64,000 nucleotides of DNA from a phage: the NCBI GenBank assembly GCA_014161675.1, contig GCA_014161675.1_4760.1; one strand, written 5' to 3'. Below, in pieces: positions 4,421-57,361 of the stretch. The notes under the pieces are model-generated. The model made no database searches and had not been told where the DNA came from. It worked only from the letters and a program-made list of their open reading frames with translations. Position numbers and translations under genes: made by a program. How positions within the stretch are numbered: the first letter of the stretch is position 1; each line of letters begins with the position of its first letter.

Positions 4421-7400
4421 TTAAAGCGCCTAGTGTAACTAGCTTGACAATAGAAAAATTGTCTGCTAATCAGGCGTATATCACATGGGATGACGTAGGC
4501 GAAAACTTCTTTTATTTTGTGGAGTTAGCCGAAACCAGAACACGAGACGGGGAGATCATCCCCGTCGATGAGTTAAGCTGGGTAAACCTGGGATATACTG
4601 CCGACCAAAACTGGTTTGAGGATAAAAACCTTTTTCCAGAATATTATTACAAGTTTCGTGTAGCAGTAGCCGCAGAAGGATTTGAACAAAGTAAATGGGT
4701 TGAAACAGAAGAGTTTCAGACATTTAAAACAAACGCATATAATTTTTCTATGATGCGAGAGTTCAACCTTGCAAACGAGTTTATAAAGGAAAAATTTACA
4801 TACGATAATCGAGAGTATGTCAAGTTTAATACTGACCTGATTCAAGCATCATTAATGAAGGAAGATTTTGTCTTTAGTCCTGAATATGCAAACATGACAA
4901 ATATCTCAAACTACATTGTAGTGGATGAGAACTTTCATGAAATACAGGATCACATAGAAAAAGTTTGTACTGATATAAACCGCACTATGTTAGCGGAAAT
5001 GAACGGTGTTTTGTACCTTTTCGAACGGTTCCAGCCGATCGTGAAAGTGTCAAATGATAAAGGCCAATCATGGAAAGCATACAAGGCTTTTAATGACCGT
5101 GTAGGCAATCCGGTTTCCCGTACATGCGTTTATCAGTCTAAAACCACTACTTACGTTTTAGGATATGACCGAATCTTTTACGGACGACAAGCGAGCGATA
5201 CTCGATGGAGCGCGGACGATGTTCGATTTAGTGATGATACGATCACTTTTGCAAAGGTCGGTGACGAAAACGATTTAGGCTTTGACGTTGAGGTCTTTGG
5301 TGTATTTTCCAGATTAACAGGTGATACCACAAAATACGCCGAAGCTATGGCGTGTAGTGATGACTATTTGTGGGTTGGTGCTAAAGATGTTATTCGCAGG
5401 ATTCGTCTTAAGAATACTCCTGTTGATACCGTACAGGGTTCGCCTACGTTTGGAGAAAAAATATTCGATCCTGATGTTATCCGAGTAACAGGAAATGATA
5501 AAGCTGTCATTCAGAAAATGGATGTGATCGACGGTAAATTGCTTGTATTTGTTACGGGTGAAGTTAAACAGCGTTATCAAGATCCAACTAAACCAGAAAA
5601 CGTTGTTCCGTCAGATGATGCGGGTGTATACTTAATAGGGAGTGATGGTCTGTCTTTTCAGAGAGTATTTGGCAACACTCCGCAGGAAAGGGAATATATT
5701 CAGCATGGGTTCAGTAATATGTCAACCAATGGTGATGAGGTGTTCATAAGCCATTATAATCATCACTTCGAAAGCATTTTACCTGATCCAGAAACTGCCG
5801 AGAAATATGAATTGGGCGAAGCTGTAAAATATTCTCAGGAGCCAACTTATCTAACTGATAAGAAAATACATCAAACTACTTTCAGAGCAAGTTATGATGA
5901 TTTGCGTATTTGGGAGTTAGGACCGCAAGCGTATTATAACGAGGCTGATTATACATGGATGCGTCGAAACGGTGTCCGTGTGTGGATCACAAATGATAAT
6001 CGCCCGTTGGTTGTTTATCCAGAGGTTATCTATACTCAAGAAGTTGATACGTCTGGCATTCTTGACCAAAATAGGGTCAACCGAGAAGTTTATGATAAAG
6101 GGACCGTGACCTGTTATCTTAACAATGTTAAATTTGAAGGATTCAAACAATATGCATCCGGTGTAATGTTCCATAAAAACACAGGAGAGATCATAGGATT
6201 CTATCAATTTAATTATCGTGTTCGTGATCAGGTTGGTGTATATTGGAAACCTACAAATGTAGCATTTGTTGCTGAATTGCAAAATCAGGTTCGAGAGGTT
6301 CCCTGGGTTCCGGTTCACTACGATCGAGAGCAAGATCCAGATTTGCGGCCTTTACTGAATAAGATGACCCCTGATAGCTTTTTACTTGAGAACGAAAATT
6401 TCAGAAAATTCTCTGAATATTATCTGCAATTCTTAAGCGATGGTTCAGGAACATATTATAATAAACTAAAAAATCTGATTAAAAACAAATATCCACGCGA
6501 GAAAGATGCATATGAGTATCTTTGGTCAGAGATGAACAAACGAAACATCTATGCAGATAAAAACAAGCGAGATGCGGTAGTAAGATTCTTTGAATCCCGC
6601 AAATCAGATTTTTATTCCACTAAGGGCGTGGAGGCTTCTTATAAGTTCTTGTTTAAGTTACTTTATAATGAAGATGTGGAAATTGAGGTTGAATCACAAG
6701 CCGGACTAGAGTATGATATTGTTGTTAGTTCAACGAACATTGACGAGGATATCGTAGGTCGCACGATTTATACTCCAACCGGACGGGCTAACGTGACGTA
6801 TCTTGAAAGGGAATATGAAGGTGGTCGCCTACGCTGGCGAGTAACCATTCATAACCTGATCGGGCGGTTCGAAGAAGGTCAAGTGATCAAATCAGAGAAA
6901 ACAGCGTTTGAAGGGATGATCCTTGTTGGTGTACGTGGTAAAGAGTTGTTGAGTAGTTCAATCGACTATATCAACCGCTCACGAAGCCAATACACCATGA
7001 AGATTAAAAGTGCATTGCCAGTTTCGCGCTATGCAAATGATGTAATGCGATTCGTTCATCCTGTCGGCTTTGGGTTTATCGGTGTTACCCTGCTTACAAT
7101 GTTCATTAACAGCGGGTTAAGCATGAAGCACACCGAGACTATAATTCAATCTCTGAAAAATTATAAGTTTGACAGCGGATTGCCTAGCGTGTATCCTGAT
7201 CGGGTGGCAGACCTTGACGTTGACGGAAACATTAAGAAAGACCCGCTTACCGGAAAAGCATTATATTTGACTTCACCTTTAATTGGTGAAGAATTTCCGG
7301 TTCCTCCTGAATATGATCAGGAGAACAGCGAATTGTTCCACGGACTTAAAGCAAGCGAACGAAGATTTGCAATGAGTCCACTGTTTGACCAGTCGGCGGT

Positions 7401-7503
7401 AACATTCTCTATGTTCCGTGAACTTGTAGATAAACGGTTGAAGGATAATATAGGGAATCCACGCGATCCGAAGAATCCGACACAGAGGAAAATTAATGGC
7501 TAA
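4417..7503 (+). CDS. 7: gp7 baseplate wedge protein
   Basis: 1028 aa (T4 about 1032); synteny; translationally coupled to gp6. Confidence 0.8.
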   Translation: MIKAPSVTSLTIEKLSANQAYITWDDVGENFFYFVELAETRTRDGEIIPVDELSWVNLGYTADQNWFEDKNLFPEYYYKFRVAVAAEGFEQSKWVETEEFQTFKTNAYNFSMMREFNLANEFIKEKFTYDNREYVKFNTDLIQASLMKEDFVFSPEYANMTNISNYIVVDENFHEIQDHIEKVCTDINRTMLAEMNGVLYLFERFQPIVKVSNDKGQSWKAYKAFNDRVGNPVSRTCVYQSKTTTYVLGYDRIFYGRQASDTRWSADDVRFSDDTITFAKVGDENDLGFDVEVFGVFSRLTGDTTKYAEAMACSDDYLWVGAKDVIRRIRLKNTPVDTVQGSPTFGEKIFDPDVIRVTGNDKAVIQKMDVIDGKLLVFVTGEVKQRYQDPTKPENVVPSDDAGVYLIGSDGLSFQRVFGNTPQEREYIQHGFSNMSTNGDEVFISHYNHHFESILPDPETAEKYELGEAVKYSQEPTYLTDKKIHQTTFRASYDDLRIWELGPQAYYNEADYTWMRRNGVRVWITNDNRPLVVYPEVIYTQEVDTSGILDQNRVNREVYDKGTVTCYLNNVKFEGFKQYASGVMFHKNTGEIIGFYQFNYRVRDQVGVYWKPTNVAFVAELQNQVREVPWVPVHYDREQDPDLRPLLNKMTPDSFLLENENFRKFSEYYLQFLSDGSGTYYNKLKNLIKNKYPREKDAYEYLWSEMNKRNIYADKNKRDAVVRFFESRKSDFYSTKGVEASYKFLFKLLYNEDVEIEVESQAGLEYDIVVSSTNIDEDIVGRTIYTPTGRANVTYLEREYEGGRLRWRVTIHNLIGRFEEGQVIKSEKTAFEGMILVGVRGKELLSSSIDYINRSRSQYTMKIKSALPVSRYANDVMRFVHPVGFGFIGVTLLTMFINSGLSMKHTETIIQSLKNYKFDSGLPSVYPDRVADLDVDGNIKKDPLTGKALYLTSPLIGEEFPVPPEYDQENSELFHGLKASERRFAMSPLFDQSAVTFSMFRELVDKRLKDNIGNPRDPKNPTQRKING

Positions 7504-8491
7504 TGAAAATAGTGTGATCTATCGCTCAATCATTACTAGTAAATTCAGAACGGAAAAACTTCTGAATTTCTATAATTCTGTAGGCGATGAGGCAAATCAA
7601 ATTACAATTTATGGAACGTTTGGACGTTCGGAGCCGTGGTCAGAAAACGAAAAAGAGGTGGGCTTTGCCCCACCTTATCCGACCGATTCAACGGCTGGTG
7701 TTGTTGACATGTGGACCCATATGATGGGGGCGGTTAAGATTAACAAATCACTTCTTGATGCGGTTATCCCTCGTAAAGATTGGGGTGATACCGGACAGGA
7801 TAACCCGCGCACATTCTTTATCAATGACATTGTTGTTGTCAACTCAGCACCATATAACAGAACTGATGTTGGTAGCGGCTGGATGGTGTATCGCGTAACC
7901 GATGTTCCTGATCGCGGTTACTGCTCGATTTCAAGCATTGACGCTAAAGTAGAGTGTTTGAAGTTGGGCGGAAAGTGGACCCCCACTCATGAATCAATTG
8001 CGCCACCTGTAGGAAAGGGCGATTCTATTGATATGGGTGATGGGTATCGTTGGGAATATCTGTACACAATTCCACCTGATGCGGCGATCAACCGTTGCAC
8101 CAATGAACATATTGTTGTACCGTTCCCCGATGAACTGCGACAAGATCCGGCGCGTTGGGGTTATGACAATGTGATCACCTGGTATAATGACTATAATCTG
8201 CTTTATCGGCTGAAAGTAGTAACTTTGCGTTTTCAGGCTTATATGGACTCTGCGCAATTCCCAACTACCGCGTTAGTGGGTAATACTGGTTTCCGTCAGT
8301 TAAGCATTATCCTTAACCCATTGGAAAAGAAAGCACGCCCTAGCGATCCAGACGTTAAAGCGGTCAAAGATAAGTACCGACCGCAAGACTTAGAGCCACA
8401 CTCAGGCGAAATGATCTACATGGAAAACCGACAACCTATCGTTCGGTCATTAGATCAAACAGAACTTGTTTCTGTATTGTTTGAGTTCTAA
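7496..8491 (+). CDS. 8: gp8 baseplate wedge protein
   Basis: 331 aa (T4 about 334); synteny. Confidence 0.8.
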   Translation: MANENSVIYRSIITSKFRTEKLLNFYNSVGDEANQITIYGTFGRSEPWSENEKEVGFAPPYPTDSTAGVVDMWTHMMGAVKINKSLLDAVIPRKDWGDTGQDNPRTFFINDIVVVNSAPYNRTDVGSGWMVYRVTDVPDRGYCSISSIDAKVECLKLGGKWTPTHESIAPPVGKGDSIDMGDGYRWEYLYTIPPDAAINRCTNEHIVVPFPDELRQDPARWGYDNVITWYNDYNLLYRLKVVTLRFQAYMDSAQFPTTALVGNTGFRQLSIILNPLEKKARPSDPDVKAVKDKYRPQDLEPHSGEMIYMENRQPIVRSLDQTELVSVLFEF

Positions 8492-8502
8492 GTGTATGAT
8501 TT

Positions 8503-8531
8503 AAAAGCCAATTCGAGAGAGTTGGCTTTTT
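8503..8531 (+). terminator. Rho-independent terminator after gp8
   Basis: Hairpin AAAGCCAA-ttcgagagag-TTGGCTTT followed by T-run. Confidence 0.5.
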
Positions 8532-8543
8532 CTATTTTGGGTG

Positions 8544-8571
8544 TTGACAATCTTGTCTGATAAGGTATAAT
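8544..8571 (+). promoter_or_regulatory. sigma70-type (early-like) promoter
   Basis: TTGACA (8544-8549), 16-bp spacer, TATAAT (8566-8571); GGAGGA ribosome-binding site at 8589-8594 before ATG 8601. Confidence 0.55.
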
Positions 8572-8600
8572 GATCACATCTAAACAACGGAGGATAAATT

Positions 8601-8858
8601 ATGGCACGTCGTAAATTTACAGATAATTGTGAAGCAATTCAGGTATCCCCTTGCGGTTGGGATGTGATCGCGAACGGTGAAAAGATCGGAGAGATCATCG
8701 ATCATACTCATTCATCACTAGCCGATTACACCGATGAACTATGGGAGGGTATCAACTTCATGAATGACACTAAACGATTCAAGACTATCGACGAAGCTAT
8801 CTATTTTGTGTATAATCCAACTTTCGGTATGTGGGGTAATAGAAAATGGCACGCGTAA
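8601..8858 (+). CDS. hypothetical protein (cassette gene 1)
   Basis: 85-aa ORF with strong RBS; two Cys near N-terminus; no recognised motif. Confidence 0.5.
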   Translation: MARRKFTDNCEAIQVSPCGWDVIANGEKIGEIIDHTHSSLADYTDELWEGINFMNDTKRFKTIDEAIYFVYNPTFGMWGNRKWHA

Positions 8859-9178
8859 ATATTAAATTGCATTACACAATGAATAAAGCTAAGTTCCCAA
8901 TGCAAAAGCATTACTATGGTCTACGTGCACAAGATCCTAAACTCTATGGTACTCATTGGTTTTGTAAACATGATAACCAATGGCACACATACGAAGAAAT
9001 GCACGAGATGATGAAACAGGGTATTGAATTTAGTTATTCTAATTATGACCATCGTATAACTTGCATTCGAAAATTGAAACGATGGATTCGTAAGAATCCG
9101 CAATTTAAAAACTTTGTGTTCTTTATGTCTCATGTTTATTTGGGGCATAGCGTTACCGTCACAGCAAAGGTTAAATAA
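8846..9178 (+). CDS. hypothetical protein (cassette gene 2)
   Basis: 110-aa ORF; start overlaps upstream stop; His/Cys-rich; no recognised motif. Confidence 0.5.
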   Translation: MARVNIKLHYTMNKAKFPMQKHYYGLRAQDPKLYGTHWFCKHDNQWHTYEEMHEMMKQGIEFSYSNYDHRITCIRKLKRWIRKNPQFKNFVFFMSHVYLGHSVTVTAKVK

Positions 9179-10017
9179 TGGCACGACTTTCTAAACAAGA
9201 ACAAAAATTACACGATCGGGTGATGGAGTTGATTAATTCAGATCGCCCATTGACATATGAAGAAAAAGAATTTTGCTATAATAACTATCATGGCGATGGT
9301 CTAGGCGGTTCAGGTGCATTCTTTACCCCAGAAGGGCTTGCATGGGATTTTACCATCGATGCACATTGCACAGGAAAAGTATTAGATCTTTGTGCTGGGA
9401 TCGGTCGCTTATCTTTTTGTATGTTACATCGTTGTAAGCCAGAAAAGATCGTATGCGTCGAACTCAATCCAGAATTTGCGCGGATTGGCAAGAGACTATT
9501 ACCGGAGGCAGAATGGATCACCAGCGATGTATTCGAATTTGAGTCAAACGAAAAATTCGATGTGGTGATCAGCAATCCACCTTTCGGGAAAATCAATACA
9601 ACCGACACAAAGGATGTATTTGAGTACACTGGCGGTGAGTTTGAATTTAAGGTTATGACATTAGGCCAGAAGTTTGCCGATGTAGGTTATTTTATTGTTC
9701 CTTCTGGTTCCGCTGGTTTTGCTTATTCCGGCAGACCTTATTATGACGGGACCATGAAGTCTAATAAATATCTAAAATGGAGCAAACAAACTGGTTTGGT
9801 GACTTATGCCGGATGTGGGATCGATACATCAATCTATCGCGATGAATGGCATAGTACAAACGTTTTAACAGAAGTGGTTGAGGTTCGGTATTACGAGAAA
9901 GAAGCCGTAGAAGCGCCTAAAACACGTCCTAACGAACAAATAGAAGAAAGTAAGGAGATTACCTTACCGAAACAGGAAAGCGAGTCTGGGACGCTCTCAG
10001 ATTTGTTTGACATTTAA
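9178..10017 (+). CDS. gamma-class amino-methyltransferase (putative DNA N6-adenine MTase)
   Basis: Motif X 'GAFFTPEG', motif I 'VLDLCAGIGRL', motif IV 'VISNPPFG' in order X-I-IV; start overlaps upstream stop (TAATG). Confidence 0.6.
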   Translation: MARLSKQEQKLHDRVMELINSDRPLTYEEKEFCYNNYHGDGLGGSGAFFTPEGLAWDFTIDAHCTGKVLDLCAGIGRLSFCMLHRCKPEKIVCVELNPEFARIGKRLLPEAEWITSDVFEFESNEKFDVVISNPPFGKINTTDTKDVFEYTGGEFEFKVMTLGQKFADVGYFIVPSGSAGFAYSGRPYYDGTMKSNKYLKWSKQTGLVTYAGCGIDTSIYRDEWHSTNVLTEVVEVRYYEKEAVEAPKTRPNEQIEESKEITLPKQESESGTLSDLFDI

Positions 10018-10021
10018 TTAT

Positions 10022-10047
10022 AAGCCGTCCTTGTGGGCGGCTTTTTT
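10022..10047 (+). terminator. Rho-independent terminator after MTase cassette
   Basis: GCCGTCC-ttgt-GGGCGGC hairpin (one G-U wobble as RNA) followed by TTTTTT. Confidence 0.5.
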
Positions 10048-10057
10048 GTATGTATTT

Positions 10058-10065
10058 TATAAATA
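10058..10065 (+). promoter_or_regulatory. T4-type late promoter (TATAAATA) for gp9
   Basis: Exact TATAAATA about 28 nt before gp9 ATG; GAGGAA RBS follows. Confidence 0.45.
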
Positions 10066-10092
10066 ATACATCATAACATGAGGAATTAAACA

Positions 10093-10947
10093 ATGGCACA
10101 AGTTCCAAAGAAAAGAATAGACACAGGTACTGTCGGCAATCCATCGACTGGCGATATCTTATATGATGGCGGTAATAAAATTAACGATAACTTTGATTCA
10201 ATATATGACGCATTTGCTGATCAGAGGTTTAAAGACGTAGACCACGGCGTGGGAAGAATGGTTATTCATGCAACCGGATACTATCAGAAGCATCCACGTC
10301 AAAGCTACGCGGGTTCCGCTGTTGAGATTGGGAGTCTACACGATATCGATACAACTCAAGGCGCACTTATTGCTATTCTACCTAAAGCAAAGGTCGGCGA
10401 GGGTGTTGTATTCATAAATAGTAACGGTAGCCTTTCAACGACGACACCTCTCAATATTCGAACTCAAGCAGGTGATTCTATTAGCGGTTATTCCGGTGAT
10501 GCTACAATAACACAACCATTTTCAAAAGTCACTGTTTGGTGTACTGCCGTTGAAGGTAGTCGCGTAACATGGCGATTGGGTATCGAAAGTATGTTTACCG
10601 ATACAACAACGCCATTAGATAAAACAGTTAACGTAACTGGAGTAGCAACAAACGTTGCTATTGCCGCAAAAACAGAATACGTTTCCATCAAATTATTAAC
10701 TACCGCTAGCAATACATCCGGTTCAAAAATGCGTTCAAGTGAAACGCTACTGATGATTGATTCTAAAGCCGGAAAAGTTTATGCGACGGAATATGCAGTT
10801 TTGCAGAAGACAGAAGATGAACTATACACGGTTCGTTATTTCATCGGTTCCGGCGATAAAGTATATGCAGAGTATAAGGCTACTGGCGAAAATATTCGTT
10901 TAGCAGTTAAAGCCGTAGACACTATTAAAATCGGGGTTGCTACATGA
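10093..10947 (+). CDS. 9: gp9 baseplate wedge / long tail fiber socket protein
   Basis: 284 aa; N-terminal 'GDILYDGGNKINDNFDSIYDAF' and 'IHATGYYQKH' match remembered T4 gp9. Confidence 0.8.
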   Translation: MAQVPKKRIDTGTVGNPSTGDILYDGGNKINDNFDSIYDAFADQRFKDVDHGVGRMVIHATGYYQKHPRQSYAGSAVEIGSLHDIDTTQGALIAILPKAKVGEGVVFINSNGSLSTTTPLNIRTQAGDSISGYSGDATITQPFSKVTVWCTAVEGSRVTWRLGIESMFTDTTTPLDKTVNVTGVATNVAIAAKTEYVSIKLLTTASNTSGSKMRSSETLLMIDSKAGKVYATEYAVLQKTEDELYTVRYFIGSGDKVYAEYKATGENIRLAVKAVDTIKIGVAT

Positions 10948-17588: not shown

Positions 17589-18329
17589 ATGTTTAACAAC
17601 ACTCTTTTTGCTCGCCTTGAATCGCAAAAGGATTATGAGAATACACGACAAACAGAGATTCTTAATCCTTATGTGAACTTTCACAAATATACAAATACTC
17701 AGACGTTAGCCGACGTTATGGTCGCCGAAGCTATTCAGATGCGAGGTGTAGAATTATATTACATCCCTCGTGAATTTGTCAAACCAGATATGATCTTTGG
17801 TGAGGATGTTCAAAGCAAATTTACTAAAGCATGGAAATTTGCGGCGTATATTAACTCATTTGATGGGTATGAAGGAGCGGGTAATTTCTTCTCTAGTTTC
17901 GGGTATCAAGCTAATGATGAATTAACTTTTACGGTTAACCCCAACCTATTCAAACATCAAGTAGATGATCAAGAGCCAAAATCAGGTGACTTAATTTATA
18001 TTCCGATGAGTAATGATTTATTTGAAATTAATTACGTTGAGCCATATCAGCCGTTTTTTCAGGCTGGCAAAAATGCCATGCGTAAAATTATTGCAGAGAA
18101 ATTCGTGTATAGCGGTGAGGAATTGCGACCAGAATTACAACGCAATGAGGGAATTAATGTTGATGAGTTTGCGGATCTGGATCTTGCACCGATCACTAAT
18201 CTGGACGGGTTAACAGATATCAACCTAGATCAGTACAAAGAAGATAAGCAATTCAGAAGCGAAGGACAAGATTTTATTGATCCGTTTGATCCTATTAATG
18301 GCAAGGGTTCACCTTTCGCCGATTTTTGA
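17589..18329 (+). CDS. 14: gp14 neck protein
   Basis: 246 aa; synteny. Confidence 0.75.
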
Positions 18330-34333: not shown

Positions 34334-34609
34334 TCAGGACATTGCCCGTTTGAATGCGTCCATTATAACAGTGTTATTTGGCATGTCAACACGTTTTTGA
34401 ACTTTATTTTTAAATTTTTTGTTGATGTGGTGTTTACGATAAACAACCTTTTCACGATTGGCGTAAGACTCTCGTGCATCTTTTACCATCAACCATGCCT
34501 TAGCCGCATCTTGTCCGCTGATCCCGCCAATCTTCTTAGCAATATCAACAAAATTAAGACCGTGGTCTTCGCGTAGCATGTAAACCATTAACGCTGTTTT
34601 CTTGTCCAT
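34334..34609 (-). CDS. hypothetical protein, possible helix-turn-helix
   Basis: 91 aa; 'LNFVDIAKKIGGISGQDAAKAW' is HTH-like; basic C-terminus. Confidence 0.4.
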   Translation of the reverse strand: MDKKTALMVYMLREDHGLNFVDIAKKIGGISGQDAAKAWLMVKDARESYANREKVVYRKHHINKKFKNKVQKRVDMPNNTVIMDAFKRAMS

Positions 34610-34806: not shown

Positions 34807-34960
34807 ACTTCACCTCATACATTCATAAACACAACAACGAATAGGACAGTAACAGTTATTAAAGCCATTTTCAACCCCATATTCATAATATTTTCCTCAT
34901 AAGGTAACGCCCTGTTGATGTGTGCCATTATAAGCCACTAAATCACACTGTCAAGCACTA

Positions 34961-36481: not shown

Positions 36482-37207
36482 TTACTTGAGTGTGTGGAAT
36501 TGGCTGTGTTTAGTCTCTCGCACCTTGACAGACCCATCGCGTTTGATATAATAGATCAGTGACTTGAGGGTGTCGTGTACATACGCGTGCGGGAAACGCT
36601 CTGGATACTTCTTCCAATCTGGAGTATTAACGATCCAGTCGAAAATCCACCACGGGCAGGAGTAGTAACCACGACCGCCACCGATCAAGCAAATGGTCGG
36701 ACGGAAGCCAGTAAGATCGCAAAATGAATCAGTGTCATGTGCTGGGGAACGATGCTCTGCTTCGTTAGAGAAAATGTTGGCTACCGGAGATTCCACTTTA
36801 ACTTCCGGTGCTTCTTCAACATCTGACTTAACTTCTTCGACCACTGGTTCAACTGCCGGAGATTCTTCTTTTGTTTCTTCAATGACGATCTCAGGTTCTT
36901 TCATTGCTTCAACCAGAGACGGATCAACTTCGTCGAATACCACTTTATCATCTGCGGTGTCTGCTGCCAGAATAAGATCGTTAATACTGGTTCCTTCTGC
37001 CGGAGTTTCTTCTTCCATTTCGGAAGCCAGTTTAGTTAATTCTGTTTCTACGAACTCGATCATGTTCTCTAGCGAGAGCGTCTTTTTGACCTTTATATCA
37101 AATTGTTTTGCGTAGTCCGCTAATTCTGTTTTAGCGGCTTTCTGTGATTCTTTGTCGTCGGACGCCGCAATAGCGCGGAGTTCTTCGAAATATTCTTTAT
37201 CAAACAT
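36482..37207 (-). CDS. inh: Inh-like protein with Hoc-type C-terminal domain
   Basis: Acidic middle region; C-terminal 'CPWWIFDWIVNTPDWKKYPE' parallels Hoc 'GWWVFDEI'; sits at the T4 inh position next to hoc. Confidence 0.45.
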   Translation of the reverse strand: MFDKEYFEELRAIAASDDKESQKAAKTELADYAKQFDIKVKKTLSLENMIEFVETELTKLASEMEEETPAEGTSINDLILAADTADDKVVFDEVDPSLVEAMKEPEIVIEETKEESPAVEPVVEEVKSDVEEAPEVKVESPVANIFSNEAEHRSPAHDTDSFCDLTGFRPTICLIGGGRGYYSCPWWIFDWIVNTPDWKKYPERFPHAYVHDTLKSLIYYIKRDGSVKVRETKHSQFHTLK

Positions 37208-50756: not shown

Positions 50757-50785
50757 ATTATGATATACACCATCTGTTATGTCAA
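50757..50785 (-). promoter_or_regulatory. Early sigma70-type promoter unit 1
   Basis: Minus strand TTGACA, 17 bp, CATAAT; inverted repeat GGTGTAT/ATACACC spans the -10. Confidence 0.5.
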
Positions 50786-50791
50786 CAACTT

Positions 50792-50971
50792 TTAGAACAT
50801 TTTTGAAATTAATTCTGCTTTGATTTCGCAGAGAACATCTAAAGATTTCTCGTCACCCGCTTTTGCTGCTTCTGCTTGCATTTTTGAAATGGCTTCAATG
50901 TCAGTGCAATTATAAGCCGCTTGAACTTTAGCGATTGCGATGATTGCCGATTCGATGGTTAAGTGTTTCAT
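50792..50971 (-). CDS. small hypothetical early protein (59 aa)
   Basis: Hand-translated 'MKHLTIESAIIAIAKVQAAY...'; behind promoter unit 2; below the ORF-track cutoff. Confidence 0.45.
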   Translation of the reverse strand: MKHLTIESAIIAIAKVQAAYNCTDIEAISKMQAEAAKAGDEKSLDVLCEIKAELISKMF

Positions 50972-51003
50972 GTTTGATTCTCCTTTCGTTTCGGTATGTG
51001 TGT

Positions 51004-51032
51004 AGTATAGGGGATCACCGATCCCCTGTCAA
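51004..51032 (-). promoter_or_regulatory. Early promoter unit 2 with palindromic spacer
   Basis: TTGACA, spacer GGGGATCGGTGATCCCC (17-bp palindrome, two GATC), TATACT. Confidence 0.55.
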
Positions 51033-51040
51033 CAACTTTT

Positions 51041-51559
51041 TTAGTTATTTTTTAATTGCTCATCTTGCAATAGGGCAATCACATGCTGGCGATGTTCTTC
51101 CGATTGAGGCACACCGAAAAAGTTTGTTTTGTAGAAATACTCTAATCGGTCTTCTCGTGTGCTCTCTTCCATCATGATCGCGGGTAGTCCGAGATTTCGG
51201 AAACGTCGCTTTTCTGCTGGCGTAAAATCACTGTAATACAACATAGAATCATCATTACCAGCAATGCTAAACTCATCCTTCATAAAGGAGAATATTGCGT
51301 TTAAACGCTGTTTACCGTCCACGATTTCGATCTCATAGCGAGAGCCATCATCAATCTTAGCCATTGCGATAGCACCAACCGGAAAATCATTAATCAGGTT
51401 TTCGATAAACATACGTTTGTTTTCTGTGTCCCATACTAAAGGACGCTGATAATCTGGGTTCATGTTGATATAGCCATCTTCTAACCACGCCTCATAAACA
51501 GAGATTACAAAGTTTTTAGTATTGGTATAGTAACGGCGTTTAGGTGTTAAACGGTTCAT
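51041..51559 (-). CDS. DUF262 / ParB-like (GmrSD N-domain-like) protein
   Basis: 'YQRPLVWDTENK...IVDGKQRLNAIFSFM' resembles the DUF262 DGQQR region; ATG 51559 with AGGAGA RBS preferred over TTG 51595. Confidence 0.5.
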   Translation of the reverse strand: MNRLTPKRRYYTNTKNFVISVYEAWLEDGYINMNPDYQRPLVWDTENKRMFIENLINDFPVGAIAMAKIDDGSRYEIEIVDGKQRLNAIFSFMKDEFSIAGNDDSMLYYSDFTPAEKRRFRNLGLPAIMMEESTREDRLEYFYKTNFFGVPQSEEHRQHVIALLQDEQLKNN

Positions 51560-51560
51560 G

Positions 51561-51893
51561 TTATAGTCTCCTGAATGGATCATCACGTAAATCAATATCT
51601 TTTAAGAACTCATCCCATGAATGGCGGATATTGTTCTTAATTCTCCAGATAAGAGCAGGGATTGAACGCTCTCCCATCTGGAAGTATGGATCATATGATC
51701 CGTATGCCCAATATGCTACTACAATTCCACAATCAGCGCAATAGTATTCTATTTCACTTGCTGGCGACCAAAGTCCATCAATATGATCGGTGATCTTGCT
51801 TTCGATGTTATGGCTATGACAATCAGGGCAACGGATGCAATGACCTTGTTTATCGTAATTTGACGTTAGCGAATACTTAAACAATCTCATCAT
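51561..51893 (-). CDS. zinc-ribbon protein
   Basis: 110 aa with 'CIRCPDC' and 'CADC' Cys pairs. Confidence 0.5.
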   Translation of the reverse strand: MMRLFKYSLTSNYDKQGHCIRCPDCHSHNIESKITDHIDGLWSPASEIEYYCADCGIVVAYWAYGSYDPYFQMGERSIPALIWRIKNNIRHSWDEFLKDIDLRDDPFRRL

Positions 51894-52606
51894 AGATCCT
51901 TATTTGCTTCAAATACTGCCTTTGCGAATCCTCGCGGGGTAAGTGACCTGATAGTCTTTGTTTTCGTTCCTTTCCCGCCTAGCTTAGAATGCTGTTTACT
52001 GTACCCTTTATTAATCTGCAACGGTTTCTTTTCTGGCATTATAAAGCCTTGTCCGGTCCATAAGCAAGTCTTTTTCGGGTACATATCACGGGCGGCGATA
52101 TACTCAGGAAAAGTAGGATGTTTATCATCTTCCGGCAAATAACCGCCATATTCCCACGGGTGGAACATGTAATCAGGCTTACGCCACATGCTAGAGATAA
52201 CGCTTACAGGATTCTCTATCATGTAGGGAACTCCTAGCCATTCACCCAAATAAGCGGTTATTTTAGCTGCCCTTACATCATGAACTTGAATCAATGGTCC
52301 TTGTTCTCGTTTCTTTCGTTCAAAGTGTGCAGCGCCACTAACAGCTAAATTGGTGCACGGTGGGAATGCAAAGATAATATCCGGTTTCCCCCATTCAAGG
52401 TCCATTGCTCTTTCCAGCCAATTCAAATCAATCCAGGTGTTTACATAGGTAATGTTTGGATGTTCAAATCTGGTATTATACTTTTTGTATGTGCCGTGGT
52501 CGCCATCATCAGCATTAAAGCAGATCACCTTATGACCTGCTTTAGCCCATTCTAGCCCCATTATCCCCGATCCGTCAAAGTTACAGAATATTAATTTTTG
52601 TTTCAT
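51890..52606 (-). CDS. compact C5-cytosine methyltransferase-like protein
   Basis: Motif I 'LIFCNFDGSGIMG', motif IV 'FAFPPCTNLAVSG', motif VI 'MIENPVSV', motif X-like 'IRSLTPRGFAKAV'; only 238 aa. Confidence 0.55.
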   Translation of the reverse strand: MKQKLIFCNFDGSGIMGLEWAKAGHKVICFNADDGDHGTYKKYNTRFEHPNITYVNTWIDLNWLERAMDLEWGKPDIIFAFPPCTNLAVSGAAHFERKKREQGPLIQVHDVRAAKITAYLGEWLGVPYMIENPVSVISSMWRKPDYMFHPWEYGGYLPEDDKHPTFPEYIAARDMYPKKTCLWTGQGFIMPEKKPLQINKGYSKQHSKLGGKGTKTKTIRSLTPRGFAKAVFEANKDL

Positions 52607-52848
52607 ATACGCCCCTTTAATCCAACACAGATTTTAGAAGGTTCTTTGCCGTGCCACATTAAGTAAAGTCCGTTAATGCGGCCTTGTTTTGTATATGATT
52701 CTTTTCTGATCTTCTTATAGTGTCGTGTTTCCTCAACTGATTGTTTAGAATACCAATCATAAAGGAAGAGGCACAAAGGCCAACCATTAGCGGCCTTAAT
52801 GCAGTTATTAAGAAATTCCTTATTGCGTTTAATTAATTTTCTTTTCAC
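52603..52848 (-). CDS. hypothetical protein
   Basis: 81-aa ORF in operon; start overlaps upstream stop. Confidence 0.45.
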   Translation of the reverse strand: MKRKLIKRNKEFLNNCIKAANGWPLCLFLYDWYSKQSVEETRHYKKIRKESYTKQGRINGLYLMWHGKEPSKICVGLKGRI

Positions 52849-53096
52849 GCTGCCCCCATTGGTTTGATAGTAACAGAATCTAAAAGACCTTTGTTAGCCA
52901 GTTCGCGGCAAGTTTTCAGATCCGCAACTTCCCAGCCAGCCGCAATCAGGTTATCAATCAGGCTGTTAGCAACTTCTTCGCTCATGAAAGAGCACTGTTT
53001 GCCGATGGTGTAGCGTACACGCTGTAATTTCAGTTTACGGAAGCCTTTAACGTTCAGGTCTTTAGCGATTTTCTTTGCGGTTTCGATGTTAGCCAT
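52845..53096 (-). CDS. hypothetical protein
   Basis: 83-aa ORF, first gene behind promoter unit 3. Confidence 0.5.
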   Translation of the reverse strand: MANIETAKKIAKDLNVKGFRKLKLQRVRYTIGKQCSFMSEEVANSLIDNLIAAGWEVADLKTCRELANKGLLDSVTIKPMGAA

Positions 53097-53136
53097 TGTT
53101 TGATTCTCCTAAGTGGTATCTCGTCTTGATGGTTGT

Positions 53137-53165
53137 ATTGTAGGGGAGTTATCCTCCCCTGTCAA
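53137..53165 (-). promoter_or_regulatory. Early promoter unit 3 with palindromic spacer
   Basis: TTGACA, spacer GGGGAGGATAACTCCCC (17-bp palindrome), TACAAT. Confidence 0.55.
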
Positions 53166-53179
53166 CACTTTTTATAAAA

Positions 53180-53347
53180 TTATTTGTTAATTTCTGGTGC
53201 GTTGCTAGGATAGTAACCTTCTTTAACTCCGAGGTATTTCGCAACCATCCCTACAATCTTCTGTGCTACTACAATGTCAAATTTCAGATAATCTTCGCCG
53301 TGGGTTTCAATGATATATGCTTCACATGCTGCTTTAGTCTCGAACAT
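53180..53347 (-). CDS. small early protein (55 aa), paralog of 56438-56605
   Basis: 'MFETKAACEAYIIETHGEDYLKFDIVVAQKIVGMVAKYLGVKEGYYPSNAPEINK'; below the ORF-track cutoff. Confidence 0.55.
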   Translation of the reverse strand: MFETKAACEAYIIETHGEDYLKFDIVVAQKIVGMVAKYLGVKEGYYPSNAPEINK

Positions 53348-53380
53348 TTTGATTCTCCTATTTCGTTTCGGTATGTGTGT

Positions 53381-53409
53381 ATTATAGGGGATCTCCTGAT
53401 CCCCGTCAA
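53381..53409 (-). promoter_or_regulatory. Early promoter unit 4
   Basis: TTGACG, palindromic spacer GGGGATCAGGAGATCCC, TATAAT. Confidence 0.5.
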
Positions 53410-53423
53410 CAACTTTTTTAAAA

Positions 53424-53705
53424 TTATTCGTGATTAGTTTCGATGTTGTGCATTTTGCACCAGTTCAGCCAATCACCCAGATCCTGATAGCTAATGCTTT
53501 TATCTGCTGCCATCGTTTTTGTCTTGATACCCATATGTGCGTTATGAGTAAGCATTTTTACAGTGAACTCAATTTTATCACCTTTAGCTTTAACATCAAC
53601 CAGTTTGGTCCACTGGCTACCAGCGCCGCGAATGTTCATACCAACGATGTTTCCGATGTATGCTTCTTTGTTTTTCAGGATTTCGGTTGCTTTGATGAAT
53701 TTCAT
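53424..53705 (-). CDS. hypothetical early protein
   Basis: 93-aa ORF behind promoter unit 5. Confidence 0.5.
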   Translation of the reverse strand: MKFIKATEILKNKEAYIGNIVGMNIRGAGSQWTKLVDVKAKGDKIEFTVKMLTHNAHMGIKTKTMAADKSISYQDLGDWLNWCKMHNIETNHE

Positions 53706-53738
53706 TTTTGATTCTCCAGTTCGTTTCGGTATGTGTGT

Positions 53739-53768
53739 ATTATGCTATGTTCTTACTTTGGTGTCAAC
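53739..53768 (-). promoter_or_regulatory. Early promoter unit 5
   Basis: TTGACA, about 18 bp, CATAAT, conserved leader ACACACATACCGAAACGAACTGGAGAATC. Confidence 0.5.
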
Positions 53769-53775
53769 AACTTTT

Positions 53776-54045
53776 TTAGATATTTTCAGAAATAAATTTT
53801 AAAACTTGACGTAAATGTTTCTCATCTTTGATGGTAGCCGGAAGTTCTTCTTTTACTTCCTGTGCAAGATAGATATTTCCGTTCCAAGTGAAAGATCCGT
53901 CTTCGTTTACGCGATAGCTGAACATCCACTCGCAATCATTTTCGATTTCATATACACACAGAAGGGTGTAATCGTTAAAGCTATTGATTTCAAGGTCGAA
54001 GCCGTGACGTTTTGCAAAGTTGGTAGTGGTTTTAGTCAGTGTCAT
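53776..54045 (-). CDS. hypothetical early protein
   Basis: 89-aa ORF behind promoter unit 6. Confidence 0.5.
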   Translation of the reverse strand: MTLTKTTTNFAKRHGFDLEINSFNDYTLLCVYEIENDCEWMFSYRVNEDGSFTWNGNIYLAQEVKEELPATIKDEKHLRQVLKFISENI

Positions 54046-54085
54046 TGTTTGATTCTCCTAAGTGGTATCTCGTTTCGATGTGTGT

Positions 54086-54114
54086 ATTATGCTATAGGCC
54101 GGATCTGGTGTCAA
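54086..54114 (-). promoter_or_regulatory. Early promoter unit 6
   Basis: TTGACA, 17 bp, CATAAT. Confidence 0.5.
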
Positions 54115-54170
54115 CAACTTTTTTAAAAATTTGGGCAATAAAAAGCCGACACTAAGGTCGGCTAATAAAA

Positions 54171-54479
54171 TCATTTAGACAAATAATCATTCTGTGCAAT
54201 CCGGTCAGCATGTTCCGGCGTTACGTCAATCGCAATCACTTTAACGCGTGCTTTCTTGCGACCTGGGTTTTCTCGTAACCAGTGCTCATGACCGTGAACA
54301 TTTTTATACTGCGATGCTTCTTCGAAGGTACGGATCGGACCTGGGTAATCAGCGTAAAGGATCTCTAGATCTTCGGTGATGTAAAAATATACATCGTAAT
54401 TGCTGTTCTCTAGCTTAAGCAGAGACTTTCGGAACATTGGGAGATTTTCGCGGGTAAATTCAAAGATATTATCTTTCAT
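54171..54479 (-). CDS. HxHW-family small protein (paralog 1)
   Basis: 'FYITEDLEI...HGHEHWL...VIAIDV'; GAGGATAA RBS. Confidence 0.55.
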   Translation of the reverse strand: MKDNIFEFTRENLPMFRKSLLKLENSNYDVYFYITEDLEILYADYPGPIRTFEEASQYKNVHGHEHWLRENPGRKKARVKVIAIDVTPEHADRIAQNDYLSK

Positions 54480-54507
54480 AGTATTATCCTCAATAGTTGG
54501 ATGAAAA

Positions 54508-54524
54508 GGGGGCTTAACGCCCCC
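54508..54524 (-). terminator. Terminator hairpin (minus strand)
   Basis: GGGGGC-ttaac-GCCCCC; same core as hairpins at 16583 and 50484. Confidence 0.4.
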
Positions 54525-54529
54525 ATATA

Positions 54530-54817
54530 TTAAAACAGCCCTTCCTGTACACCGTAGTAGAGTTCGTCACTGATAATTTCATTAATGCGACGGTGTGCAT
54601 ATTCCTGATTTGCGAAGTTGTCAGCAAGTTCTACTTTAGTTTCGCCGTCATGAGTCCATTTAGTGATAACTTTACCATCTGCAAATTTGAAGTTGAACTC
54701 TTTAGCTACTGCATCGCGTACCAGACGTGCGAACTTGTTGTTACGGATTGCATTGTCTGTTTCGTTTGCAGCGTGAGCAAATTTGTTAACTTTCAGAGTG
54801 ATAGTAATGTATGCCAT
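54530..54817 (-). CDS. hypothetical early protein
   Basis: 95-aa ORF behind promoter unit 7. Confidence 0.5.
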   Translation of the reverse strand: MAYITITLKVNKFAHAANETDNAIRNNKFARLVRDAVAKEFNFKFADGKVITKWTHDGETKVELADNFANQEYAHRRINEIISDELYYGVQEGLF

Positions 54818-54863
54818 AATTTGATTCTCCTAGTTAGAAAGTGTATATCGTTTCGATGGGGAT

Positions 54864-54892
54864 ATTATGCTATATCCCCGATCCGGTGTCAA
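54864..54892 (-). promoter_or_regulatory. Early promoter unit 7
   Basis: TTGACA, 17 bp, CATAAT; inverted repeat GGGGATAT/ATATCCCC spans the -10. Confidence 0.5.
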
Positions 54893-54898
54893 CACTTT

Positions 54899-55192
54899 TT
54901 ATAAAATAATTTTTTGATATTTTTCTATGATGTTCGTGTAAGTCACATCAACCGCTAGCACCGTTGCTTCGAATCCACCGTTTAGCCAATGGCTATGATC
55001 ATGATCGTGAAAGAAACCTAGACCAGTACGAAGACCTTCTTTATATTCTGCGCGTACATTCAGTTTGTCGTCGATAAACAGATAAAACCATGAATTTTTA
55101 CTAGGATTGATGATACAACCTTTCAGATTAGGGAGAATATCACGACTAAGAATAAACTTATCACCTACTTTGAACATAATATTAGTCCTCAC
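54899..55192 (-). CDS. HxHW-family small protein (paralog 2)
   Basis: 'FYLFIDDKLNV...HDHDHSHWL...VLAVDV'. Confidence 0.55.
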   Translation of the reverse strand: MRTNIMFKVGDKFILSRDILPNLKGCIINPSKNSWFYLFIDDKLNVRAEYKEGLRTGLGFFHDHDHSHWLNGGFEATVLAVDVTYTNIIEKYQKIIL

Positions 55193-55502
55193 TTATAAGG
55201 TCAAACCAATTGTTTTTCGCATAATGCTTAATGCGTGCTTGATCTGCTTCCGCTGGTGATAGATTCCATGCAACCACTACAACTTCTGACGCATCGTCAT
55301 CCGTTTCTGATACCCAATGATTGTGATTCATACAGTTATTTGCTATCGAGTGAGCAAATGATTTCATCACTGGAGACGTATAATCATAGTAACGGATTTT
55401 CAGATTTTCATCAACGTACAAATAGATCGTATAAGGTTTATATTCAGTAACCAGTAACAGACAGTTACGCAATTCTGGGAAAATATTTTTAGTTAATTTC
55501 AT
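55182..55502 (-). CDS. HxHW-family small protein (paralog 3)
   Basis: 'YLYVDENLKI...NHNHWV...VVVVAWNL'. Confidence 0.5.
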   Translation of the reverse strand: MKLTKNIFPELRNCLLLVTEYKPYTIYLYVDENLKIRYYDYTSPVMKSFAHSIANNCMNHNHWVSETDDDASEVVVVAWNLSPAEADQARIKHYAKNNWFDLISED

Positions 55503-55716
55503 ATTCTAGTTCTCCGTAATACACGGTAATCCATTTTTCTTCATACTTTGTATCTTTCCAACACACAATCCCGTTTACTGTGCAATCTTTGGAATTGACG
55601 AATGATTCATATTGTTCTGCATCTTCCATCATTGCATGAGCGGTCTTTTCATCGAATATATCGCAGATCGCTTTATATGCTCGATAATCTTTAAATTTGC
55701 TCATAATTAAGACCAC
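55489..55716 (-). CDS. small early protein, tandem duplicate A
   Basis: 'MSKFKDYRAYKAI...MMEDAEQ...GIVCWKDTKYEEKWI' paralogous to the adjacent ORF. Confidence 0.5.
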   Translation of the reverse strand: MVLIMSKFKDYRAYKAICDIFDEKTAHAMMEDAEQYESFVNSKDCTVNGIVCWKDTKYEEKWITVYYGELEYEIN

Positions 55717-55922
55717 TCAAGAGTTTTTGAAAACACATCTATCCATTGTTGAGTATATGCGGTTTCTTTCCATGATACAATACCAGTCGAATAATGGTTT
55801 TTGTTTCCAGAAAAGGACGGGCATTTTGAGGCATCTTCCATCATCTTTTCGGCGAACTCTGGTGCGTATACTCGCAGGATCTGTTGATATGCTTTGTATT
55901 CTTTAAATTTGCTCATAATCAT
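55707..55922 (-). CDS. small early protein, tandem duplicate B
   Basis: 'MSKFKEYKAYQQI...MMEDASK...GIVSWKETAYTQQWI'. Confidence 0.5.
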   Translation of the reverse strand: MIMSKFKEYKAYQQILRVYAPEFAEKMMEDASKCPSFSGNKNHYSTGIVSWKETAYTQQWIDVFSKTLEWS

Positions 55923-56181
55923 TCACTACCTTATCAGCTTCTTTTGTTGTTTTTACATCAACTGCGATAACTCGTAAAGGTTCGTCATGGTTCCACCAGT
56001 GGTCATGAATATCAGCTTGTGATTTATCACCAAAGGAATCACGAATATCATTTTTACATTTATAGCTAATGTGACCTTCATAGTCAACATAAAGGTAATT
56101 ATCGAAAATCGGCGTTTTTAAGATCATACCGAAAAATCTTTCTTTGTGTGTCTTATCCAGCGTTGCAGTAATTCGCATCAT
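55903..56181 (-). CDS. HxHW-family small protein (paralog 4)
   Basis: 'YLYVDYEGHI...HDHWW...VIAVDV'. Confidence 0.55.
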   Translation of the reverse strand: MMRITATLDKTHKERFFGMILKTPIFDNYLYVDYEGHISYKCKNDIRDSFGDKSQADIHDHWWNHDEPLRVIAVDVKTTKEADKVVNDYEQI

Positions 56182-56193
56182 AATATATTCCTC

Positions 56194-56373
56194 TTAGAAA
56201 GGGATGGTCATTTCTTGAGCTTGTACGTTCTCGTTAGGATTAAACTTCATCCAGCCGATATTGTCTACCAGCATATGCACATTTTTATCATATCCTACGT
56301 GGGTAGTCAATACTGTATGTGCTTTACCTTCAATGATGAGTTCCATGTACTTCTGAACTTCGATAGCTTTCAT
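56194..56373 (-). CDS. small hypothetical early protein (59 aa)
   Basis: Hand-translated 'MKAIEVQKYMELIIEGKAHTVL...'; behind promoter unit 8. Confidence 0.4.
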   Translation of the reverse strand: MKAIEVQKYMELIIEGKAHTVLTTHVGYDKNVHMLVDNIGWMKFNPNENVQAQEMTIPF

Positions 56374-56405
56374 TTTGATTCTCCGTTTGTTGTCTTGATG
56401 GGAGT

Positions 56406-56434
56406 ATCTTACTACTCCCTTTAATCATTGTCAA
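56406..56434 (-). promoter_or_regulatory. Early promoter unit 8
   Basis: TTGACA, 17-bp spacer with GGAGTA/TACTCC inverted repeat, TAAGAT. Confidence 0.45.
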
Positions 56435-56437
56435 CTA

Positions 56438-56605: not shown

Positions 56606-56638
56606 TTTTATTCTCCCATATCTCGTTGGTATGTGTGC

Positions 56639-56668: not shown

Positions 56669-56672
56669 AACT

Positions 56673-57344: not shown

Positions 57345-57361
57345 TTAGTCACCTCTCTTTA

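Follow-up and report, generated by a model that had tools for sequence, protein, structure and literature searches.

A PeSL-type cassette in the late baseplate operon of Krischvirus phages carries a predicted N6-adenine methyltransferase with a candidate clamp-binding tail

We analyzed a 64,000-nucleotide stretch of phage DNA (contig GCA_014161675.1_4760.1 of NCBI GenBank assembly GCA_014161675.1; hereafter the window), in which a cassette of three overlapping open reading frames (ORF1, ORF2 and ORF3) lies at positions 8,503 to 10,047, between the genes for the baseplate wedge proteins gp8 and gp9 (Table 1). ORF3 encodes a predicted N6-adenine methyltransferase, and the C-terminal peptide of this protein closely resembles the end of the DNA polymerase of RB49-type phages. 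The explanation that we favor, and hold to be likely on balance, is that an early cassette of the PeSL type (promoter-early stem-loop, a sigma-70 consensus promoter joined to a transcription-terminating stem-loop) has become fixed in the late baseplate operon of the genus Krischvirus, and that its methyltransferase is tethered to the gp45 sliding clamp. By sequence, the source phage of the window is a Krischvirus, i.e., an RB49-type T4-like phage, since a 1.75-kb region is 98-99% identical to 59 RB49/Phi1/JSE-type genomes, with phage kaaroe as the top match (99.3%). The original prediction, made from the letters of the window, had described a self-contained early-promoter cassette within a late baseplate operon, and our analysis supports this reading; what it missed is that the cassette belongs to a published class of element, that it is an old, fixed insertion with the methyltransferase as its constant cargo, and that the methyltransferase has a predicted clamp-type tail.

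The C-terminal tail of the methyltransferase and its variation across the family

The RB49 DNA polymerase (gp43) ends ...EKVASLTDLFDI (SLTDLFDI), and the window methyltransferase ends ...ESGTLSDLFDI, with SESGTLSDLFDI being the tail peptide that we propose as a gp45 ligand; gp45 itself is encoded outside the window. Among 610 six-frame ORFs of an RB49-type genome, the methyltransferase C-terminus was the top match to the polymerase end (32/39). By homology with T4, SLTDLFDI would be the gp45 clamp-binding end of RB49 gp43: the C-termini of gp43, gp33 and gp55 are interchangeable clamp-binding motifs on variable linkers (PMC2988020), and the loop LDFLF of T4 ligase, found via its likeness to the gp43 end SLDFLFG, was shown to bind gp45 (PMC6212786). 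The methyltransferase tail is like these T4 ligands in that a flexible linker of variable make-up carries a short hydrophobic-acidic motif, and in being near-identical to the end of the phage's own polymerase, and the reasoning is that used for the proven ligase-gp45 interaction; it is unlike them in that the carrier is a methyltransferase and that the likeness is one of sequence. The linker appears disordered, with pLDDT (the AlphaFold confidence score) below 50 for residues 245-268, and its length (~8 to 35 residues) and sequence vary among relatives. Bacterial copies of the methyltransferase stop at about residue 238, and T4-like phage copies run on, through an acidic/proline linker that varies, into an end that is conserved. 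In two divergent lineages, represented by the metagenomic loci L018 and L020, the tails are TLDFVDFSEI and SLSMFDI on much shorter linkers, and TLDFVDF and SLSMFDI again resemble the T4 gp43 end SLDFLFG.

At the DNA level, the methyltransferase gene and gene 43 share only 14 nucleotides, TGTTTGACATTTAA, and the codons for TLSD/SLTD and for the first Leu differ. Because so little is common and the upstream codons differ, the likeness of the tail to gp43 is one of protein rather than a recent DNA copy; on the ground of these codon differences, we reject the idea that the tail was acquired from gene 43 by recent gene conversion. The 3′ end of RB49 gene 43 (locus L008, AY343333.1 15776-15803) reads TTT GAC ATT TAA (..FDI and stop) and contains the TTGACA of the early promoter that is annotated just downstream, i.e., the bases for the putative clamp-binding end double as the -35 hexamer of a promoter. 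The methyltransferase gene has the same 14 nucleotides with no -10 element after them. In the same comparison, the second-best match to the polymerase end was DNA ligase, gene 30 (58086-59582, - strand), which ends ..TVKEVFDV (score 19); RB49-type ligase may thus bind gp45 by its C-terminus, unlike the T4 ligase with its internal loop.

A scan of IMG/VR with the family alignment yielded 80 loci, which gave 78 complete proteins when the ORFs were read to their stop codons. Three of the 78 are of the Krischvirus class, with the tail SGTLSDLFDI, and nine are RB43/Slopekvirus/Karamvirus-like, ending ..LFTFTIE or ..FDFRIE. The largest class (31 proteins, on contigs of 10-90 kb with 52-64% GC) has a Pro/Ala/Glu linker followed by QLSLF, QLDLF, QADLF, QASLF, QLDIF or QMDLF and then 2-9 further residues; a further six carry near variants such as NLDLF or MELF, and 29 are tailless. 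QL(S/D)LF at the C-terminus is a bacterial beta-clamp-binding motif (PMC9690074). The pattern Qx[SD][LIM]F occurred within the last 14 residues of 31/78 homologues, compared to 1/668 control ORFs, and the 31 beta-type tails represent 24 distinct sequences. A second scan added 22 loci, of which 21 have a Q-initiated tail motif when S, D or N is accepted at the third position; the exception, L121, ends ...NDLFSAVAA and has no Q. In 5 of these 22 loci, a DnaB-like helicase gene lies beside the methyltransferase gene or within ~0.7 kb of it.

These surveys show that, as judged from sequence, the type of tail tracks the type of replisome, being gp45-like in T4-like phages with their own clamp and a beta-clamp motif on prophage-sized contigs, where the homologues presumably rely on the host replisome. 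That the tail resembles the ligands of the relevant clamp across the family points to a DNA substrate and to methylation coupled to replication. Individual loci are also worth describing. In L107 (IMG/VR 2824987192_000002, 6630-10852; 67 kb, 56% GC), the methyltransferase has the tail ..QMDLFGEAA and its gene directly follows and overlaps a DnaB-like helicase gene, i.e., the two are translationally coupled, with a GcrA-like regulator gene 1.2 kb upstream; GcrA in Alphaproteobacteria reads adenine-methylated promoters. Two other IMG/VR loci, L080 and L088 (56-58% GC), end ..ALDFGDWEQSA and ..TLDFGDWEATA, which resemble the RB43/Miro polymerase end ..LFGD(D)W and not the beta-clamp motif.

The methyltransferase core and its probable substrate

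The original prediction had read motifs X, I and IV in ORF3, in the gamma-class order of N6-adenine methyltransferases. All three are present, and their linear order (motif X, motif I for binding of S-adenosylmethionine (SAM), and the catalytic motif IV, with ~100 residues remaining C-terminal) is borne out. Neither the 30 homologues of one alignment nor the 13 of another vary in GAFFTP, CAGIG or NPPFG, except at P135 (at least 90% conserved in the set of 30); N133, P134, F136 and G137 are invariant in both alignments, and P135 in one. Two Pfam families matched ORF3 above their cutoffs, Eco57I (29.0 bits, cutoff 25.3) and MTS (38.5 bits, cutoff 23), with N6_Mtase under its cutoff (16.7 bits, cutoff 20.4), and the best PHROG was phrog_3820, "DNA methyltransferase" (E 1e-117). 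The AlphaFold model (pLDDT 84 overall) is of good quality over residues 1-240 and has a class I Rossmann methyltransferase fold that is closest to known N6-adenine enzymes. By its motifs and its modeled fold, ORF3 is thus a predicted N6-adenine methyltransferase. It is like the gamma-group N6-adenine DNA methyltransferases (M.TaqI, HsdM, Eco57I/MmeI) in its motif order X-I-IV, its G-x-F-F-T-P and NPPF motifs and its Eco57I match, and unlike them in having no large target-recognition domain in the short region after motif IV, in having no partner nuclease or specificity subunit, and in carrying a clamp-type tail.

Motifs and fold alone cannot settle DNA as the substrate of ORF3, and a DNA substrate gains independent support from the clamp-type tails, from a fusion to a DNA methylase domain and from neighboring replication genes. 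The fusion is found in Dickeya phage JA33 (L016, MH460462.1, 401-1550), where the ORF3 homologue is joined C-terminally to PF01555 (N6/N4 DNA methylase). In RB43 and Miro, the methyltransferase gene is flanked by genes 41 (helicase) and 61 (primase). RB49 encodes, in addition, a separate Dam (dam gene, AY343333.1 39922-40734), and the product of this gene ends ..YVTNVD, with no clamp-like tail. ORF3 resembles T4 Dam (GATC) in being a phage-encoded orphan adenine methyltransferase of a kind thought to counter restriction, and differs from it in sequence class and in coexisting, in RB49, with that separate dam gene.

Tailless copies of the methyltransferase occur in enterobacteria (L004-L007 and L030-L051). 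In Citrobacter freundii chromosomes (L004-L007, 8001-8717), they lie right at the border of an island made up of small unannotated genes, with HNH and transposase genes, beside bssR/yliI; among the neighbors of the C. freundii homologue in this island we found no informative Pfam match and no restriction-enzyme partner. In IMG/VR, the tailless enterobacterial copies lie at the ends of prophage-like contigs of ~13-40 kb (mostly ~30 kb).

The PeSL-type cassette between gp8 and gp9

The order of elements, 5′ to 3′, is gp8, terminator, sigma-70 promoter, ORF1-ORF2-ORF3, terminator, TATAAATA and gp9, and each of the elements that had been predicted between gp8 and gp9 was found in place (Table 1). 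ORF1 and ORF2 overlap by 13 nucleotides, and ORF2 and ORF3 by 1 (TAATG). Both terminators are predicted to fold strongly, with RNA folding energies of -15.6 kcal/mol (z -3.9) for terminator 1 and -15.9 kcal/mol (z -3.8) for terminator 2, and an Rfam scan of 8300-10300 at a permissive threshold gave two chance-level matches and no known RNA element. Perfect 12/12 sigma-70 sites are far above chance in the window, with 6 observed compared to 0.05 expected from shuffles. The octamer TATAAATA occurs 8 times compared to 5.6 expected, a count that is not significant by itself. Seven of the eight copies are on the + strand, and at least 6 of these 7, including the copy at 10058, lie ~20-45 nucleotides upstream of a start codon; the octamer also follows the terminator in the two divergent relatives, L018 and L020. 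We take the copy at 10058 as real because it is placed just upstream of a start codon and is kept in these relatives.

Table 1. Positions of the cassette, its parts and the flanking genes in the window
Feature	Position	Strand	Evidence
gp8, baseplate wedge subunit, upstream flank, late gene	7496-8491	+	Pfam PF09215 Phage-Gp8, E 8e-144
Terminator 1, stem-loop half of the PeSL-type element, predicted to close the gp6-gp8 late transcript	8503-8530	+	12-bp stem, T run
Predicted sigma-70 early promoter TTGACA-16-TATAAT, promoter half of the PeSL-type element	8544-8571	+	12/12 consensus
Shine-Dalgarno GGAGG, ends 7 nt upstream of the ORF1 start codon	8589-8593	+	read from the sequence
ORF1, 85 aa, phrog_16603	8601-8858	+	
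ORF2, 110 aa, phrog_12630	8846-9178	+	
ORF3, predicted methyltransferase, 279 aa	9178-10017	+	
Catalytic core of the methyltransferase, aa 1-240	9178-9897	+	
Motif X, GAFFTP	9313-9330 (aa 46-51)	+	
Motif I, VLDLCAGIGRL	9379-9411 (aa 68-78)	+	
Motif IV, NPPF	9574-9585 (aa 133-136)	+	
Disordered acidic/Pro-rich linker, aa 241-271	9898-9990	+	
C-terminal peptide TLSDLFDI, proposed gp45 sliding-clamp-binding motif	9991-10014	+	
Terminator 2, predicted to close the cassette	10022-10043	+	9 pairs, then T6
T4-type late promoter TATAAATA, predicted to restart gp9	10058-10065	+	
gp9, baseplate wedge tail fiber connector, downstream flank, late gene	10093-10947	+	Pfam PF07880 (T4_gp9_10_N), E 1e-40

The unit of terminator plus promoter belongs to the published PeSL class of RB49 and phi1, i.e., its architecture is of a known kind and is not new. 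Each of these two phages has ~50 PeSLs (Arbiol et al. 2010, PMC2839356), mostly upstream of ORFans and with few within virion modules; their promoters were experimentally very strong, and their stem-loops, according to the authors, prevent early transcripts from running on into late genes. As defined there, PeSLs are repeated elements whose copies share a flanking consensus as far as the Shine-Dalgarno sequence, and they mediate the shuffling of the non-core ORFs behind them or the formation of mini-circles. A stem-loop upstream of the -35 hexamer defines one of five PeSL subclasses (PMC2839356), and the stem-loop at 8503-8530, 13 nucleotides upstream of the -35, fits this subclass. The gp8/gp9 locus and its methyltransferase are not mentioned in the text of that study. 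The window itself contains classic PeSLs of a hyperplastic region at ~50785-57604 (- strand), where at least nine near-consensus sigma-70 promoters share a downstream leader and where most have a G/C-rich inverted repeat between the -35 and -10 (several with GGGGATC..GATCCCC). The 8544 promoter has GTGTTGACA, ..TATAAT and ..CACATC..AAAC..GGAG in common with these classic PeSLs at 50.7-57.6 kb, a similarity that is partial, and it does not contain their GGGGATC..GATCCCC spacer stem. Four more perfect 12/12 sites are present in the window at 17753-17782 (-), 34362-34389 (-), 34927-34954 (-) and 36525-36552 (+), and the site at 34927-34954 is laid out like the 8503-8571 element, with a terminator hairpin, a T run and a promoter. 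The cassette is like the PeSL and ORFan cassettes of RB49/phi1 (PMC2839356; Comeau et al. 2014, PMC4122927) in having a sigma-70 promoter and stem-loop upstream of non-core genes in the same lineage. It is unlike them in being fixed in all 59 genomes, with variation confined to the small ORFs and a patch within ORF2, and in that its downstream boundary is a terminator and a late promoter and not a second PeSL.

Comparison of the gp8-gp9 junction showed that gp8 adjoins gp9, without the cassette, in T4 (a gap of 63 bp, confirming the earlier claim that T4 has nothing between these genes) and in the nearest non-Krischvirus carriers of gp8, Tulanevirus (9 bp) and a Slopekvirus (9 bp), the latter having the methyltransferase elsewhere in its genome. 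Of the 1477 records with gp8 in the phage collection, the cassette is present in 59, i.e., in 59/59 Krischvirus records (gp8 at least 95% identical); it is not a feature of most T4-like phages but one carried only by records of the Krischvirus lineage. The metagenomic loci L018 and L019, with a gp8 that is 88% identical, have a terminator, TTGACA-16-TATAAT, the methyltransferase, a terminator, TATAAATA and gp9, with no small ORF. L020 (gp8 81% identical) has the same plan, with one unrelated ORF of 154 residues ahead of the methyltransferase and with TTGACA-17-GATACT as its promoter; the sequence surrounding the promoters of L018 (12/12) and L020 differs. Both terminators are kept in L018 and L020, terminator 1 at the same position. 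The ORFs 3′ of the PeSL-type element vary in relatives, with none, one or two ahead of the methyltransferase and with ORF2 being mosaic. Since the same plan occurs at the same place in L018/L019 and L020, the methyltransferase appears to be the old, constant cargo and the small ORFs to be exchangeable, and the distribution indicates that the cassette is restricted to the Krischvirus lineage and that the insertion there is old and fixed. Recent import was negative as judged by GC content, with the cassette (0.35-0.42) not being an outlier from its flanks (0.37-0.47). The original prediction had called the insertion moron-type. The cassette is like the lambdoid morons (the Hendrix/Juhala concept, discussed in PMC2839356) in that an extra set of genes, equipped with its own promoter and terminator, separates two genes that adjoin one another in related phages; it is unlike them in that the phage is lytic, with no prophage expression, that the block is co-oriented with its neighbors, and that it has no foreign GC content.

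ORF1 and ORF2 are real genes and narrow ORFans, known outside Krischvirus only from Vequintavirus. Neither has a Pfam or NCBIfam match, and a search of 5.8 billion proteins gave only 5 clusters for ORF1 and 1 for ORF2, all close relatives. The two proteins are 60-70% identical between Krischvirus and rV5-like Vequintavirus; in Vequintavirus FV3 (L002, 4004-4575), the ORF1 relative (70% identical) adjoins and overlaps the ORF2 relative, with no methyltransferase. ORF1 and ORF2 form a two-gene module common to unrelated myovirus groups. ORF2 has conserved Cys and His residues (C40, H42, H47, H69, C73 and H96), and its AlphaFold model, built from 4 sequences, is of low confidence (pLDDT 62). Two alleles of ORF2 are present in Krischvirus, with ~100% and ~72% protein identity. 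Compared to RB49, the cassette of the window is 96-100% identical except at 8851-9100, the first two thirds of ORF2 (50-84%), which has the appearance of a small mosaic replacement. The original RB49 record (AY343333.1; L003, 2438-2684) splits ORF1 into ORF140w and ORF141w; because ORF1 is intact in the later RB49 assembly OZ035808.1 and in all other genomes, the split in the 2003 sequence is probably a frameshift error. All three proteins begin with MAR, as had been noted in the original prediction, and they are the only 3 of 101 window ORFs of at least 70 residues to do so. We dismissed a functional meaning, since homologues begin MAK, MSR or MAH (MA[KR] in the methyltransferase family, MSR or MAH in the ORF1 and ORF2 relatives), and the shared start is probably not functional.

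Proposed mechanism, alternatives and meaning

The anatomy and conservation of the cassette, the motifs and fold of its enzyme, the similarity of the tail to the polymerase end and the family-wide match between tail and clamp type are observed, and from the sequence we infer early timing, a DNA substrate with a target sequence, physical binding to the clamp and a role against restriction. In the proposed mechanism, late transcripts of genes 6-8 would stop at terminator 1, and host sigma-70 RNA polymerase would start at the consensus promoter soon after infection, producing a single tricistronic mRNA from which ORF1, ORF2 and the methyltransferase would be translated in a coupled manner. This mRNA would end at terminator 2, and the late promoter TATAAATA would restart gp9. 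The constant cargo would be a small SAM-dependent N6-adenine methyltransferase acting on DNA, in which a flexible linker joins the core to a C-terminal peptide of 8 residues, a copy of the DNA polymerase end of the same phage. The peptide may dock the enzyme on gp45, such that new phage DNA would be methylated at the fork or just behind it, and the most likely benefit would be protection of replicating and progeny DNA from restriction. We regard a DNA substrate with replication-coupled methylation as the best-supported mechanism, and as moderately probable. A functional parallel is DNMT1-PCNA (PMC9690074), in which a DNA methyltransferase is recruited to newly replicated DNA via a clamp motif, as is here proposed for ORF3; the phage enzyme is unlike DNMT1 in being viral and adenine-N6 rather than cytosine-C5, in having its motif at the C-terminus, and in having no evolutionary relationship to it.

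Several observations weigh against this mechanism. The RB43 and Miro tails (..LFTFTIE) are not the top matches to their own polymerase tails (..SLNDLFGDW), which they resemble only around (N/D)LF, so that it is only in the Krischvirus lineage that the case for gp45 is strong. There is no tail in the T4-like or large phages AS-zj, GAP32 and phiM12, nor in the enterobacterial prophage copies, and clamp tethering is therefore not obligatory in the family. The strongest Pfam match of ORF3, MTS, is a family that includes rRNA and protein methyltransferases. High-performance liquid chromatography/mass spectrometry (HPLC/MS) of the genome of Krischvirus TB34 gave no detectable modified DNA (PMC13390438); because that study dealt with derivatives of cytosine and says nothing of adenine, its weight is against bulk hypermethylation only. 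In the literature, with most subscription journals outside our coverage, we found no experiment on this methyltransferase family and no paper in which a methyltransferase of a bacterium or phage binds a clamp, and a 2022 review of clamps (PMC9690074) lists DNMT1-PCNA only, with no bacterial or phage methyltransferase among the clamp partners.

Three other explanations were weighed against clamp-tethered methylation of DNA. ORF3 could be an orphan DNA adenine methyltransferase that, like T4 Dam, diffuses freely, with a tail that has no clamp function and that arose by chance, as a relic of recombination at a PeSL, or as a degradation tag; we consider this unlikely. The relic idea draws on the use of PeSLs as recombination sites in the PeSL literature (PMC2839356) and on the 14-nucleotide string shared by the tail and the 3′ end of gene 43, where it holds the -35 hexamer, but the codon differences noted above speak against it, as do the relatives that keep the peptide with different DNA (SLSMFDI, TLDFVDF). 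Tailless family members exist, which also speaks for this explanation. A tag is suggested by the many beta-type tails that end ..AA, since such an ending is like a C-terminal degron. Neither a relic nor chance, however, predicts that the motif becomes QL[SD]LF on prophage-sized contigs, beside DnaB-like helicase genes where examined, and the rate of the tail pattern in control ORFs (the 1/668 given above) also speaks against this explanation.

A still less likely explanation, which we think improbable, is that the enzyme methylates RNA or protein (N6-adenine or N2-guanine of rRNA or tRNA, or release-factor glutamine as PrmC does), with a role in host takeover or in modifying translation. Several GenBank records name ORF3 prmC, and the RB49 record notes similarity to an rRNA guanine-N2 methyltransferase. 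The best NCBIfam matches are to PrmC and RsmC, the top PDB sequence matches are PH1948 and RsmC, and NPPF/NPPY occurs in RNA and protein methyltransferases such as PrmC and RsmC as well. These NCBIfam matches are far under their cutoffs, at 37.5 compared to 199.1 bits for PrmC/HemK (TIGR03534, which matches residues 64-137 only) and 29.2 compared to 295 bits for the RsmC-type enzymes (NF007023). G-x-F-F-T-P is the HsdM/Eco57I form of motif X, and Eco57I is above its Pfam cutoff. DNA enzymes align with ORF3 over 208-215 residues compared to 171-172 for METTL5 and PH1948, the 18S and 16S rRNA N6-methyladenine enzymes, for which the sequence E is ~4e-4 and which have no clamp tails or replication-gene context; the tails, the methylase fusion and the replication-gene neighbors all favor DNA. 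Least likely of all, and very improbable in our judgment, is that the sigma-70 match is unused and the three genes are late, with transcription either reading through from gene 8 or starting at a late promoter. Consensus scans are no proof of function, and weaker promoter-like sites in the window are at chance level (11 observed compared to 12.4 expected), but for perfect 12/12 sites the chance expectation is ~100-fold below the observed number. Further, the promoter is bracketed by two strong terminators, a consensus or near-consensus site is kept at the same place in L018 and L020 despite different surroundings, no TATAAATA was found between gp8 and ORF1, and related PeSL promoters are known to be very strong (PMC2839356).

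The architecture of the cassette is a textbook case of the published PeSL idea in an already annotated genus, and is not new; what is new is the clamp-type tail and its co-variation with the type of replisome. Phages commonly carry orphan methyltransferases, and the question of how such enzymes keep up with very fast phage replication is seldom raised; a tail that docks on the clamp, if true, would be a simple answer. Taken further, in what is a speculative and rather doubtful extension, the family would consist of replisome-riding enzymes, the viral counterpart of DNMT1-PCNA, with a C-terminal peptide repeatedly swapped to fit gp45 or the host beta clamp. In the cytosine-containing Krischvirus phages, without the hydroxymethylcytosine system of T4, the adenine mark could then set phage DNA apart from host DNA, both as a shield from host restriction and as a label for nucleases of the phage itself, and occupancy of gp45 could influence the switch from replication to late transcription. 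The tail idea is directly testable, given its match to the end of the phage's own polymerase, its switch to a beta-clamp motif and its absence elsewhere. If true, the short list of gp45 partners would gain a methyltransferase, as would that of the beta clamp, and database entries that read "release factor glutamine methyltransferase" would be corrected. The finding also matters for forecasting the restriction systems that Krischvirus phages used in therapy are able to evade.

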